From the sequence record EF437941: 64,000 nt of DNA; one strand, given 5' to 3'. Shown one piece after another: positions 58,595 to 63,977 of the stretch. How positions within the stretch are numbered: position 1 is the stretch's first letter; each line of letters starts with the position of its first letter. The position numbers and the translations under genes are program-made. The notes beneath the pieces are model-generated. The model was not told where the DNA came from. It saw only the letters and a list, made by a program, of their open reading frames with translations, and searched no databases. The DNA comes from Escherichia phage Phi1.

Positions 58595-58813
58595 TTATTT
58601 ATATCGCTTTCTCTCGCGACGTTTTTGATCTTCTTCCTTGATAGAGTTAAATGCATCAAAAAGACACATGACACTGATAATGAACATAACCGTATTTTCT
58701 ACGATATCCAACGGCTTCGCATCAGTACAGATCACCCAAACGGTAAGAAATGCAAATAAGGCAGAAGAGATCACAAGCATGATACTTGCTAAGATATAAA
58801 AAGTCATTTTCAT
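58595..58813 (-). CDS. small membrane protein
   Basis: 72 aa, two TM helices then basic tail. Confidence 0.45.
   Translation of the reverse strand: MKMTFYILASIMLVISSALFAFLTVWVICTDAKPLDIVENTVMFIISVMCLFDAFNSIKEEDQKRRERKRYK
58596..58603 (-). promoter_or_regulatory. T4-type late promoter motif TATAAATA
   Basis: exact TATAAATA on minus strand. Confidence 0.35.
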
Positions 58814-59004
58814 GGTTTTACCTCAATTCTTCGATATTCATCACACATCCACGCAGTAAGCAAGAATCCCAACACATAAGCAACAAAATACGTTAATGCT
58901 TCTTCTGGTTCGGTGCTATGCGCCATCATCAGACCAGCGAGAAAGGTCTTAACAATTACATTTAAAATAATTAGCCACGCAAATAATTTCATCGTTTGCC
59001 CCAT
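58810..59004 (-). CDS. small membrane protein
   Basis: 64 aa. Confidence 0.45.
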   Translation of the reverse strand: MGQTMKLFAWLIILNVIVKTFLAGLMMAHSTEPEEALTYFVAYVLGFLLTAWMCDEYRRIEVKP

Positions 59005-59228
59005 TTCGGACGAGTCTTTTCAAACTTATACATTACGCAACAATCTCGAATCATCCACGTAACAAGAGCACCAGTCAACACAGACAACACACAGAAGAAG
59101 TAAAACGGTCCGGTTGCATTATCAACATGAGCAAGCCATGTAAAGAAAACACATGCAAGGAATGTAAAGAACATCATAAAACACAAGAAAGCAAAATATT
59201 TTATGCTACTCATAGCGCCACCATACAA
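58989..59228 (-). CDS. small membrane protein
   Basis: 79 aa. Confidence 0.45.
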   Translation of the reverse strand: MYGGAMSSIKYFAFLCFMMFFTFLACVFFTWLAHVDNATGPFYFFCVLSVLTGALVTWMIRDCCVMYKFEKTRPKWGKR

Positions 59229-59316
59229 CAGATCATAAGAAAACCCAACGCAATAAGAATTGCATCAAATTTAGTGAACTCCGGTCCACCTATCAACATC
59301 ATTCGTTCCTGTTCAG

Positions 59317-59559
59317 TTATAGATCACAGAGCCATCTTAAAGCACCACATAAAGCGAGCAGAATACTAGGTATAAACGAGATCAAAACAAGTTTGCAAAA
59401 ATCATCTAAGGTAACACCGGAATAGCTACCAACTGTAACAACACCGATCATAAGACACAGAAAGAAAACAAATGCAATCAGAAACAAAGTATTGCTAAAC
59501 AGTTTAGTGATCATTAGACACCCCACGACGGTCAATTTCAAAAACTTTTTTATCATCAA
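59317..59559 (-). CDS. small membrane protein
   Basis: 80 aa. Confidence 0.45.
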   Translation of the reverse strand: MMIKKFLKLTVVGCLMITKLFSNTLFLIAFVFFLCLMIGVVTVGSYSGVTLDDFCKLVLISFIPSILLALCGALRWLCDL

Positions 59560-59707
59560 CGAAGCATGTCACAACTGCCTCGTTGACTTCCGCAAATTGT
59601 TGTGTTACCCACTTAAGGTCAGATCGAAACAATGTTCTATTAATAACAAATGTTTTACCGCTCTTATCCTTACCCATAAATTTTGCTTTAACCATATCCA
59701 ATTCCAT
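59504..59707 (-). CDS. hypothetical protein
   Basis: 67-aa ORF with AAGGTGA RBS. Confidence 0.45.
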   Translation of the reverse strand: MELDMVKAKFMGKDKSGKTFVINRTLFRSDLKWVTQQFAEVNEAVVTCFVDDKKVFEIDRRGVSNDH

Positions 59708-59716
59708 ATTATCACC

Positions 59717-59875
59717 TTATTTGCTAATCGCTAAACCTAATCCGAAGAGAGCACCCGACGCTACAGTATACCCGAAAGTTTCAAAGGCAGTAAAGATATC
59801 TAAGCCACCAGCTAACAGAGTTGCAGTAAACAGAGTACCAGCTACGAACATAAAAGTTTTACCGATAAATTTCAT
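59717..59875 (-). CDS. small membrane protein (52 aa)
   Basis: manual translation MKFIGKTFMFVAGTLFTATLLAGGLDIF... Confidence 0.4.
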   Translation of the reverse strand: MKFIGKTFMFVAGTLFTATLLAGGLDIFTAFETFGYTVASGALFGLGLAISK

Positions 59876-59941: not shown

Positions 59942-60316
59942 TTAAGAATATTTTACTTCGTCTACAATGTCTTTCATGACATTGATTTCCATTCCGGTCA
60001 GAACACGTTGGAACATGTGCTGAACATACGCTTTCAGGTATTCATTTGATGGCTTGCTATCGAAAGTCTTTTTAGTGTAGTAGTCATCACCGAAAGCTAC
60101 TGTAATTACATTTTCGTCGTCGTTCCAAGCGATATAAGCAAATTTGCCGTTATCCCAGAAGCGAGCACTAATTGCTACTTTTGTTGAATCGAATCCTACT
60201 TCGCTGTGAGATTCAAGAACTACTTGCGTGCCAGTTTCTTTATGAATGTAGTAGCGGGATACTAAGTCAAAGTTACGGGTGTAGTGACATTCGAACTTAT
60301 CTTTAAACATCATCAT
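59942..60316 (-). CDS. hypothetical protein
   Basis: ORF with GGAGAATCAAAA RBS. Confidence 0.5.
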   Translation of the reverse strand: MMMFKDKFECHYTRNFDLVSRYYIHKETGTQVVLESHSEVGFDSTKVAISARFWDNGKFAYIAWNDDENVITVAFGDDYYTKKTFDSKPSNEYLKAYVQHMFQRVLTGMEINVMKDIVDEVKYS

Positions 60317-60354
60317 TTTTGATTCTCCCAAGTGTTTTTCGTTTCTATGTGTGC

Positions 60355-60383
60355 ATTATGCTATAGTCGTTTATGGTTGTCAA
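60355..60383 (-). promoter_or_regulatory. early promoter
   Basis: TTGACA-N17-CATAAT. Confidence 0.5.
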
Positions 60384-60391
60384 CACATAAA

Positions 60392-60420
60392 AACAAAAAA
60401 ACCCCGAAAAATTTTCGGGG
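60392..60420 (-). terminator. rho-independent terminator
   Basis: CCCCGAAAATTTTTCGGGG hairpin followed by T-run. Confidence 0.6.
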
Positions 60421-60427
60421 TATAGAA

Positions 60428-60898
60428 TTACAGTTTGGTCGTCCACTCCAGGTCTAGATCTTCGACATATTCATGAGATCGGACAATCTCTAAATCGAAC
60501 TCTAGGTCAGTGCCAAATTTACGCGCACCAACATCATAAGAAAGCGTGATATGCGGTACATATTCAGGATAATCCCACGTCGCACCTAAAGCAGTTCCGA
60601 TATCGTGTCTGAATTGCATGTAGTCGCTTTCAAATGCCAACACAAGCGCATTAGTACCGGATTGAGTTTCAAACACTTTCAGATGGCATAGAGAGCCTAA
60701 AAACTTTTCACCCTCTTCTGGGATAAACGGAACATAGACACGAGAATATAAGATAGTGCTATGCAGTTTATCACGAGGAACGGCATTAGGCAGATCGTAG
60801 AACTCCTGCAATTTTTCAATGCGGTCTAGTGTATCCTCAGTGAATTTAACAGCCGCATATGTACCTTTAACGGATTCTCGAAACGGGGTCATAATCAA
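60428..60898 (-). CDS. 57B: 2H phosphoesterase, gp57B/Acb1-like (anti-CBASS cyclic-nucleotide phosphodiesterase candidate)
   Basis: 156 aa; two H-x-T/S-x motifs (HSTI, HITL) at the spacing of 2H phosphoesterases; immediately downstream of 57A-like and gene 1 as in T4. Confidence 0.65.
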   Translation of the reverse strand: MIMTPFRESVKGTYAAVKFTEDTLDRIEKLQEFYDLPNAVPRDKLHSTILYSRVYVPFIPEEGEKFLGSLCHLKVFETQSGTNALVLAFESDYMQFRHDIGTALGATWDYPEYVPHITLSYDVGARKFGTDLEFDLEIVRSHEYVEDLDLEWTTKL

Positions 60899-61161
60899 GC
60901 CTCCGTGATCAGTTCTACTTCCTCTTTATCGTCTTCCGCTGCTTCGTCTTTAGGGAGAAGTGCTTTCACTTCTTCGACAATCGCATCAAGGGAAACAGTG
61001 CCGTTTTCGTCTGGCTGAATACCCAGAATGCGTACCAGTTCCATCAATACACGCTCACGATCTTTCAGTTGGCCTTCTAAGAATGCGGCCTTTTCTTGAG
61101 TGTCAAACAGACGTACTTTCAGGACATTAATCATTTGTTCATGCTGATTGGACATATTCAC
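60895..61161 (-). CDS. 57A: tail-fibre assembly chaperone gp57A-like
   Basis: 88 aa, acidic coiled coil; position between gene 1 and 57B. Confidence 0.55.
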   Translation of the reverse strand: MNMSNQHEQMINVLKVRLFDTQEKAAFLEGQLKDRERVLMELVRILGIQPDENGTVSLDAIVEEVKALLPKDEAAEDDKEEVELITEA

Positions 61162-61187: not shown

Positions 61188-61844
61188 TTAAATGTTCGCG
61201 AGAATCGCGCTTTCAAATTCTTCTAATGTGCCATTATTTATAATGATGGTTTCACCGTCAATAGGCAAAATTCCTTTTTCGGTGGAGTGAGTCGATACAA
61301 TACCAGTATCACGCTGAATATGCAACACCTTAGCACCCATAGAACGCATGAGAGCAATTTCAATAGGCTGACGCACATCAACCACTACAAAATACCCTTC
61401 TTCATTTTTGCGCTTCATAAACTCATCCACAAAGAGATTACACCAATAAAGCGGATTGATCAAGTTAACCATTATATCAGTACCGAGAGTGGTTAACATG
61501 AGACGAATAGACCAGACGTTATTATGTTTTTCGCCGATCTCATTAACGACCTTGTAAATCTCAGCCAGACGATCACAAGTAAAGGAGCTACCGCCATACT
61601 TCGAATCTAGCATAAGCAGACACTGAATAAACCACTTATGCGCGGTGTAGGTATCAATACCTAGATCGGCTTCTCTGTCACGCCCTAACCCGTCAAAGTC
61701 AAGATAAGTCAGACCTAAGTCTGGTTGACATTCGCATAAGATTTCTTTGATCGGTGCTGCCAGTTGATAACTGTGTCCATCAATGATTAACGCGGCAGTG
61801 TCTTTTCCTACTCGCTTTTTACCACAAAGTGCAATCAATTTCAT
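61188..61844 (-). CDS. 1: deoxynucleoside monophosphate kinase gp1
   Basis: 218 aa; P-loop GKKRVGKDT, TLGTD, VVVDVRQ; collinear with T4 gp1 as remembered. Confidence 0.85.
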   Translation of the reverse strand: MKLIALCGKKRVGKDTAALIIDGHSYQLAAPIKEILCECQPDLGLTYLDFDGLGRDREADLGIDTYTAHKWFIQCLLMLDSKYGGSSFTCDRLAEIYKVVNEIGEKHNNVWSIRLMLTTLGTDIMVNLINPLYWCNLFVDEFMKRKNEEGYFVVVDVRQPIEIALMRSMGAKVLHIQRDTGIVSTHSTEKGILPIDGETIIINNGTLEEFESAILANI

Positions 61845-61859
61845 TATATAAGCCTCTTA

Positions 61860-62450
61860 TTACTTTCTAAAAGCAGGGTGCATAGCTTTAATACCTTCCA
61901 CCCGCTGACGATCCGCCGCCTGAATTGCTGGGCGAGGAACGATCAGTTGACCATCACGTTCAATGCTCATTGTTTTAAATGGAAGAATTGCAGTACACAC
62001 CAGAGATTCATGCATATCATCGGTGTATGTTAACTCAAGTTCCCCCAATTGTGAACACCAACAACCATAAAAGTTAAAGGTGCAAACAATGTTACGTCGT
62101 TCATTGTCCATCATGTGAACTTGAACGGCTTCCGGCATTGAATCCTTCCACGCTGTGGAATTACCGTTATTGTAGTCTACTATAGAAAGCATCCATGTGT
62201 AAAGGTTTAGATAGCTTTCTAGATGTTCATCGACAATAAACCGAACTACCAACGGGTCAAACTCCACATGACTAGACGGATAATCAGCAACCGCCAAACC
62301 ATATTGACCAGCAACTTGCTTAGTCGGTGGAATGGTTATAGCAGGAAGTGTAACACCTTGACAGTTTAAAGTAAAGCCTTTTGTTAGTTGTCCATCTGGA
62401 ATATTGATCTGCCAGTTACTAGGGTTAGCATAGTTAAAGAGATTAGACAT
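61860..62450 (-). CDS. hypothetical protein at gene 3 position (possible tail completion protein)
   Basis: 196-aa ORF following gene 1; positional inference only; GAGGAA RBS. Confidence 0.4.
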   Translation of the reverse strand: MSNLFNYANPSNWQINIPDGQLTKGFTLNCQGVTLPAITIPPTKQVAGQYGLAVADYPSSHVEFDPLVVRFIVDEHLESYLNLYTWMLSIVDYNNGNSTAWKDSMPEAVQVHMMDNERRNIVCTFNFYGCWCSQLGELELTYTDDMHESLVCTAILPFKTMSIERDGQLIVPRPAIQAADRQRVEGIKAMHPAFRK

Positions 62451-62895: not shown

Positions 62896-62926
62896 AAAAA
62901 AGCCCGTCAATGACGGGCTTAATTTT
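62896..62926. terminator. bidirectional rho-independent terminator
   Basis: AAAAA AGCCCGTCAATGACGGGCT TAATTTT between convergent genes. Confidence 0.6.
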
Positions 62927-63977
62927 AATATGTATCAGCTAATTTAATTATGTTATCAAGTTCCGTGATTGGTAAAGTTTCTGTGTATCCATCTTTCAAC
63001 ATGGATTTGTCAACAACGCCACAATGATAAGTTCTCTTTATTTCCTTTTCAAGTTCCCACGGAATCCAGCCATCAACACTTTGTTTGACGTAAACAAGTT
63101 TGTGAACAAACTTAGATTTCTGCATATGTTGTTTCATTCTGGTTTCTGGTAATTCATTGGTTACACCAAACTTTATAAATTTATCATCTAACGTCTGGAT
63201 ATAAAAATATCCCATCTCAGATGGACGATAGCCAGAAGAACTACATTTCGGACACCCTTTAGATCTATGACCATCAAAAGTACAAAATCTAACAGAAAAC
63301 TCCTGATTGTGTTTATTGCACTTCATTTTCAACCATGATTTATCAGATCCTATCCATCCACCATCAAATTCAATAAAACTATAATTTAATTGGTCGCATC
63401 TTTCAATTATTCGTTTAATAGCCACACTTTCTGGTAACAAGTGTGTTGTCTTTTTACTTTCGTTTACACATTTCTTACAACCACATGTCCCACACTTCGT
63501 GAAGTTAAAGAATTGTGTGTTCTTCCAAATATGGTTATGTTTCTTACATTTTAATATCATTTTAGTAGTGACGTGCTTCCACGCACCAACAAAACCTAAA
63601 AATTCATAGTTTAATTCCTCACATCTTTCTTTTGCTATTTTAATAGCGTCTTCTTCTAGTAAAGACCCGTTACACTGCGGACAGCCTACTATAACCTTTT
63701 TACCATAGAAACTATTGCTAGAAACATCATAGATAGACCCGTGCTTATTGCATTGGATAACAGATCTAGTCAATTTTCCTTTCCATTCTCCAGAAAATCC
63801 TAAGAATGTATGGTCGACAAGTTTACACCTTTCAATAACTTTATCCGCAAATTCTCTAGGAGATTTTGTTACCTTGTTTACTCTGTATTCTATTTCTTCC
63901 GGTTGACGAAGATCATAAACGTGGGGATTGCTCCCCACGGAATTAATATTACGCATCTTTCCACACCTTCCTTGCAT
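62925..63977 (-). CDS. multi-zinc-ribbon protein with C-terminal T5orf172/GIY-YIG-like domain (homing-endonuclease-like)
   Basis: 350 aa; three repeated modules with CxxC pairs; C-terminus GYFYIQ...KFGVT...R...E pattern resembling GIY-YIG/T5orf172. Confidence 0.5.
   Translation of the reverse strand: MQGRCGKMRNINSVGSNPHVYDLRQPEEIEYRVNKVTKSPREFADKVIERCKLVDHTFLGFSGEWKGKLTRSVIQCNKHGSIYDVSSNSFYGKKVIVGCPQCNGSLLEEDAIKIAKERCEELNYEFLGFVGAWKHVTTKMILKCKKHNHIWKNTQFFNFTKCGTCGCKKCVNESKKTTHLLPESVAIKRIIERCDQLNYSFIEFDGGWIGSDKSWLKMKCNKHNQEFSVRFCTFDGHRSKGCPKCSSSGYRPSEMGYFYIQTLDDKFIKFGVTNELPETRMKQHMQKSKFVHKLVYVKQSVDGWIPWELEKEIKRTYHCGVVDKSMLKDGYTETLPITELDNIIKLADTY

Follow-up and report, generated by a model that had tools for sequence, protein, structure and literature searches.

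The T4 gene 57B encodes Acb1, the founding anti-CBASS nuclease (Hobbs et al. 2022, PMC9117128), which represents a well-established phage counter-defence that destroys the cyclic oligonucleotide messengers of CBASS and can itself be sensed by Panoptes-type systems. T4 Acb1 cleaves 3'3'-cGAMP, cUA, cAAA and cAAG, while cGG and cA4 are left uncleaved, and the reaction needs no metal, breaks the bond 3' of adenosine and has a cyclic phosphate as its intermediate (PMC9117128). The HxT/HxT tetrad H44, T46, H113 and T115 is catalytic, Y12, W74, F107 and W147 are the stacking aromatics, E141 reads the N6 of adenine, and residues 145-152 form a C-terminal lid (PMC9117128). Both 3'3'-cGAMP and cAAA were cleaved by T4 Acb1 and by each of nine more homologues, and the protection of phage from CBASS in vivo was demonstrated with T4 Δacb1, which is restricted by CBASS operons from Yersinia aleksiciae and E. 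coli (PMC9117128).

More recently, T4 Acb1 was described as one of the least selective 2H phosphodiesterases of viruses, and its degradation of 2'3'-c-di-AMP was reported to trigger the Panoptes guard system (preprint 10.1101/2025.08.21.671373). According to the same work, product distributions and the activity on 2'3'-c-di-AMP vary within the T4 Acb1 structural group, and the specificity is set by the enzyme core (10.1101/2025.08.21.671373). The 2022 study lists the RB49-like phage vB_EcoM-G2494 among the 57 phages of its lysate screen (PMC9117128). We found that the Acb1 of this phage is identical at 153 of 154 residues to the protein described here. A literature search for RB49 with Acb1, and for G2494 or Krischvirus with cGAMP, returned no biochemical or genetic study of an RB49-type Acb1.

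We analysed a 64,000-nucleotide stretch of phage DNA, hereafter the window, in which a reading of the sequence alone had proposed an Acb1-type nuclease at the position of T4 gene 57B. Over 2.6 kb around the gene, 56 full-length records of Krischvirus, among them MIZ6, GEC-3S, RB49 and JSE, share 98.0-98.7% nucleotide identity with the window, and by sequence the source of the window is an RB49-like Krischvirus, a T4-type coliphage. The gene is almost certainly acb1, the T4 57B orthologue of this phage, encoding a 154-aa single-domain 2H phosphoesterase that is predicted to cleave CBASS signals. This assignment is based on the family match, the fold, the conserved residues, the gene order and the layout of the transcription unit; from these we infer, strongly for its activity, how the RB49-type orthologue works as an enzyme, which substrates it takes and that it counters CBASS in vivo.

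The ORF list contains an uninterrupted minus-strand ORF at 60428..60898, which counts 156 aa from a TTG codon. The sequence-only reading had taken this whole ORF as the gene; the ORF is indeed intact, but its start had to be revised, as translation of acb1 most likely begins with the ATG at 60892, 6 nt inside that ORF, yielding a CDS at 60428..60892 (minus strand) of 154 aa plus a TAA stop, with a product that starts MTPFRESVKGTY. The identification of this CDS as gene 57B rests on its identity to the RB49 protein, the Pfam match PF23474 and the UniRef name.

The ATG at 60892 is favoured because of its Shine-Dalgarno spacing and the RB49 annotation: a GGAGG motif read from the sequence at 60900..60904 (minus strand) lies 7 nt from this ATG and only 1 nt from the TTG at 60898, and RB49 gp57B is annotated from the equivalent ATG as a 465-nt CDS. 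In the reverse complement, the start region reads ...ATC ACG GAG GCT TGA TT ATG ACC..., so that the alternative TTG overlaps the TGA stop codon of gene 57A (60895..60897). We therefore rejected TTG 60898 as the start, as it is 1 nt from GGAGG, overlaps the 57A stop and is not the codon used in RB49. Because the Shine-Dalgarno motif is located within the 3' end of 57A, translational coupling of acb1 to 57A is suggested.

The gene lies in the context known from T4, where 57B directly follows gene 1 and 57A and is co-oriented with gene 3. Immediately upstream of acb1, with its stop codon abutting the acb1 start, is the tail-fibre chaperone gene 57A (60895..61155, minus strand, 261 nt), assigned from the RB49 annotation; the ORF at 60895..61161 matches Pfam GP57 with 27.3 bits at a cut-off of 27. 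Upstream of 57A follow gene 1, encoding dNMP kinase (61188..61844, minus strand; Pfam DNMK, E 6.5e-68, and RB49 annotation), and gene 3 for tail completion (61860..62450, minus strand), which has a gp19-like tail tube fold according to Pfam and is also annotated in RB49. The order 3 - 1 - 57A - 57B on one strand was thus the same in the window, RB49 and T4. In this way, the GP57 and DNMK matches, the RB49 annotation and the gene order of T4 all bear out the earlier placement of the ORF at the 57B position, just downstream of a 57A-like gene and gene 1.

A terminator scan together with reading of the sequence identified an intrinsic terminator at 60391..60421 (minus strand), in which ACCCCGAAAA-loop-TTTTCGGGGT precedes a run of T. 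Its hairpin (60421..60401) has a 9-bp stem with 5 GC pairs and the tail TTTTTTGTTT, and it begins 6 nt past the acb1 TAA. By its layout, the group gene 3 - gene 1 - 57A - 57B looks like a unit that is closed by this predicted terminator.

With respect to family membership, the protein matched the Pfam family Acb1 (PF23474) from position 1 to position 143 of the 144-position profile, with 174.3 bits at a cut-off of 27 (E 1.5e-51). NCBIfam returned no match for the protein. It is 100% identical to RB49 gp57B (AAQ15381.1). The alignment to T4 Acb1 (NP_049750.1) that had been proposed as a check was run and extended over the full length with 47-48% identity (BLASTP E 3e-47) and with the functional residues conserved. 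The only significant solved relative is the Acb1 of Erwinia phage FBB1 (7T26/7T27), with 53% identity and a PDB match at E 1.9e-43; like the Pfam match, this exceeds chance by a wide margin.

In a collection of 5.8 billion proteins, 64 of 64 relatives carry PF23474, and the exact sequence occurs on 316 contigs and under the UniRef name 'Anti-CBASS protein Acb1 n=16 Tax=Krischvirus RepID=Q7Y455_BPRB4'. Using tblastn, we found the family in 1474 phage records, 50 of which are at least 99% identical; most of the others belong to T4-like phages that infect enterobacteria, Acinetobacter, Aeromonas or Vibrio. The Pfam score, the close match to 7T26 described below and the retention of all residues defined by Hobbs et al. 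agree in placing the protein in the Acb1-type family, as had been proposed from the sequence.

The two motifs from which a 2H phosphoesterase had originally been recognised, HSTI and HITL, were found in place: H44-S-T46-I at 60763..60755 and H114-I-T116-L at 60553..60545, numbered on the 154-aa product. The first HxT motif, H44-S45-T46 (CAT AGC ACT; 60755..60763, minus strand), aligned with H44/T46 of T4 Acb1, and the second, H114-I115-T116 (CAT ATC ACG; 60545..60553, minus strand), aligned with H113/T115. The spacing from H44 to H114 is 70 residues, which is identical to that in FBB1 Acb1 and one residue longer than that in T4 Acb1, and the earlier statement that the motifs are correctly spaced thus held.

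The substrate-contact residues follow the same pattern. Aligned to the T4 stackers Y12, W74, F107 and W147 are Y12, F74, Y108 and W150, with F74 and Y108 being the same residues that are found in the crystallised FBB1 Acb1. The C-terminal segment (residues 144-154; 60431..60463, minus strand) was delimited by alignment to T4 and FBB1 Acb1 and contains E144, which aligns with T4 E141, and the lid residue W150, which aligns with T4 W147; the C-terminal LEWTTKL falls on the T4 lid in this alignment. In a set of 62 diverse homologues, H44, T46, S50, H114, T116, L117 and Y119 are invariant, and G10, T11, Y12, R95, E141, Y142 and E144 are conserved in at least 90%. Overall, the alignment with T4 and FBB1 showed that all catalytic and contact residues defined by Hobbs et al. 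are identical or conservatively aromatic in the window protein, and none is lost.

Compared with T4 Acb1, the protein is therefore similar in size (154 versus 152 aa), in its single 2H domain, in the catalytic tetrad, in Y12, in the adenine-reading Glu and in the Trp lid, and it differs in its overall sequence (47% identity), by F74 in place of W74 and Y108 in place of F107, by one additional residue between the His motifs and by two before the last strand (LEFDLE against VQ--IP). It is closer to FBB1 Acb1 in whole-chain identity, His spacing, F74 and Y108, although the FBB1 enzyme stems from a phage of another host genus and lacks the two residues inserted into the loop that precedes the final strand, and the structure of the RB49-type enzyme is a predicted model.

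This AlphaFold2 model, which was built on the homologue alignment, reached a mean pLDDT of 91.6 and a pTM of 0.84, and low pLDDT was limited to the first 5 and the last 4 residues (151-154). The low-pLDDT C-terminus is consistent with a flexible lid that is disordered without ligand. In a Foldseek search against the PDB, the model matched 7T26 (FBB1 Acb1, apo) with a target-normalised TM of 0.97, an rmsd of 0.9 Å over 138 columns and 52% identity, and 7T27 (FBB1 Acb1 with 3'3'-cGAMP) with a target-normalised TM of 0.93, an rmsd of 2.0 Å and 52% identity. The predicted structure thus has the compact 2H phosphoesterase fold of the solved Acb1.

The next match in that search was the phosphodiesterase of Burkholderia phage BCSR5 (9Q2Y/9Q2G), with a TM of ~0.7, an rmsd of 3.3-4.8 Å, 16-18% identity and E ~1e-7. 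This enzyme, apparently '2H PDE-9' of the preprint, shares the 2H fold and is likewise a phage enzyme that degrades 3'3'-cGAMP, but it belongs to another sequence family, carries its lid at the N-terminus rather than the C-terminus and cleaves 2'3'-c-di-AMP poorly (10.1101/2025.08.21.671373).

By homology to the characterised enzymes, the following course of action can be proposed. The acb1 gene would be transcribed together with genes 3, 1 and 57A and would probably be translationally coupled to 57A. The enzyme would capture cyclic di- and trinucleotide signals of CBASS with one or more adenosines (3'3'-cGAMP, cUA, cAAA and cAAG) in a U-shaped pocket, in which Y12, F74, Y108 and W150 would stack on the bases and E144 would read the N6 of adenine, before the Trp-bearing C-terminal lid closes over the ligand. 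The ligand would be distorted so that the 2'-OH of adenosine can attack the 3'-5' bond, and H44/T46 and H114/T116 would perform a metal-independent acid-base cleavage on the 3' side of adenosine via a 2',3'-cyclic phosphate. Because the cyclic signal would be linearised, the CBASS effectors would stay inactive and abortive infection would be avoided.

An alternative that accepts the family assignment is that the protein is a true Acb1 whose substrate range has shifted relative to that of T4, with a different main target in Krischviruses; possible shifts concern 2'3'-c-di-AMP (the Panoptes decoy), the cyclic trinucleotides that type III CRISPR or type II Panoptes systems use, or other messengers. 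Because the identity to T4 Acb1 is only 47% and two residues are inserted before the final strand, quantitative substrate preferences could differ from those of the T4 enzyme, and the replacement of W by F at position 74 and the variation in specificity even inside the T4 Acb1 structural group (10.1101/2025.08.21.671373) point in the same direction. However, F74 and Y108 are the residues of the FBB1 Acb1 that was crystallised with 3'3'-cGAMP, 9 of 9 additional homologues cleaved both 3'3'-cGAMP and cAAA (PMC9117128), and none of the known substrate-contact residues is lost, which makes such a change of main target improbable.

We consider it quite improbable, too, that the RB49-type Acb1 has a shifted profile that is possibly less active on the 2'3'-c-di-AMP decoy and defeats CBASS without tripping Panoptes-type guards. 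If this were true, the frameshifted acb1 copy of phage Cognac, which is described below, might result from selection acting against Acb1 wherever these guards are widespread.

The assignment as an Acb1 of the expected activity also has to be weighed against its labels in the databases. The phrog_755 description is 'RNA ligase', and many RefSeq 57B records, T4 57B included, read likewise. Such labels would fit a LigT-type 2',5'-RNA ligase or cyclic phosphodiesterase that functions in RNA or tRNA repair instead of acting on immune signals. RNA-repair functions do occur in T4-type phages, and E. coli LigT (PDB 5LDI and others) shares with the window protein the 2H superfamily, two HxT/S motifs, metal-independent chemistry and a distant similarity in fold (E ~4e-4), but the substrates of LigT are RNA ends and 2',3'-cyclic phosphates rather than the cyclic oligonucleotides of immune signalling.

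The comparison with LigT, which had been named as the result that would speak against an Acb1, came out in favour of Acb1. In Pfam, LigT_PEase (PF02834) scored 14 bits against a cut-off of 23.3 and 2_5_RNA_ligase2 (PF13563) scored 19.4 bits against a cut-off of 27, both below threshold, compared to 174 bits for Acb1. Across E. coli LigT and other 2H enzymes, Foldseek gave TM values of 0.45-0.58, rmsd values of 4.5-7.8 Å and 10-13% identity; for LigT itself, a TM of ~0.5, an rmsd of ~6.8 Å and 11% identity stand against the TM of 0.97 and rmsd of 0.9 Å for Acb1. The features specific to Acb1 are all present, namely the base-stacking aromatics, the Glu that reads adenine and a C-terminal lid with Trp, and the 'RNA ligase' label is older than the 2022 characterisation of T4 57B, for which the RefSeq label is out of date. 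Because Pfam, sequence identity, fold and residues all favour Acb1, a LigT-type RNA-repair enzyme is very improbable, and we rejected this reading, since Pfam, NCBIfam and the fold search show similarity at the superfamily level only, to which the likeness of the model to LigT is confined. As a side observation, most GenBank and RefSeq records carry 'RNA ligase' or 'hypothetical protein' as a label, and few carry 'anti-CBASS protein'; the assignment made here corrects these outdated labels for most Krischvirus records.

The least probable reading, a decayed or catalytically dead remnant that is kept by its place in the gene 1/57A operon, could appeal to the split acb1 of Cognac, a single Krischvirus record, which implies that loss may be tolerated, but it is opposed by an intact ORF in the window, by the conservation of all catalytic and binding residues, by the good Shine-Dalgarno motif and own terminator of the gene, and by its occurrence at 99% identity or more in 50 phage records and in identical form on 316 contigs, which fits purifying selection.

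In Cognac (MZ504877.1, 529..992), acb1 has a 1-nt deletion in a T run and is annotated as two ORFs of 64 and 82 aa; the deletion corresponds to approximately position 60703 of the window, or position ~196 of the CDS. Either the sequencing erred in this homopolymer or the phage has lost Acb1 naturally.

The gene is thus an ordinary member of the Acb1 family, found in the usual place within a familiar phage genus, and brings nothing new biologically: its family, fold, mechanism and genomic position have been on record since 2022, and UniRef already lists the exact protein as Acb1. The case demonstrates that a true anti-defence enzyme can be recognised from raw sequence alone.

Downstream of acb1, the window departs from T4. 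Directly after the terminator, a sigma-70 consensus promoter with an 11/12 match (TTGACA-17-CATAAT; 60383..60355, minus strand) faces ORF125c and the small-gene cluster further downstream, and the predicted terminator and promoter together mark a clear transcription-unit boundary at 60355..60421 (minus strand). The ORF125c homologue (59942..60331, minus strand; 124 aa in the RB49 annotation) belongs to phrog_15253, function unknown, and its sole other match was a sub-threshold one to Pfam Gp30.7 (E 0.0045). As the downstream neighbour of acb1, it occupies the place of the anti-restriction gene ipI in T4, and on position alone it can be put forward as a candidate anti-defence gene, so far uncharacterised.

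Next comes a run of small ORFs at 58595..59875 (minus strand). It includes a homolog of dmd at 59504..59707 (Pfam Dmd, E 7.6e-16); T4 Dmd is an antitoxin against RnlA/LsoA. Around dmd lie several visibly hydrophobic ORFs of 50-80 aa (phrog_16462, 17225, 15290, 15717 and 15168), all of unknown function. When we searched the region downstream of acb1 for known anti-defence genes such as T4 ipI, only dmd was recognisable. In its composition, the run of ORFs resembles a Krischvirus-specific accessory or anti-defence neighbourhood.

On the other side of the unit, a 350-aa ORF at 62925..63977 (minus strand) matched phrog_681 'endonuclease' (E 1.4e-76) and contains two stretches of homology to Pfam CapR. 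This ORF is absent from RB49, where gene 2 directly follows ORF130w, and it is covered by only 9 of 57 Krischvirus records at ~89% identity, some of which give it the label of a GIY-YIG nuclease. The ORF resembles a variable insertion of the homing-endonuclease type between gene 3 and gene 2.
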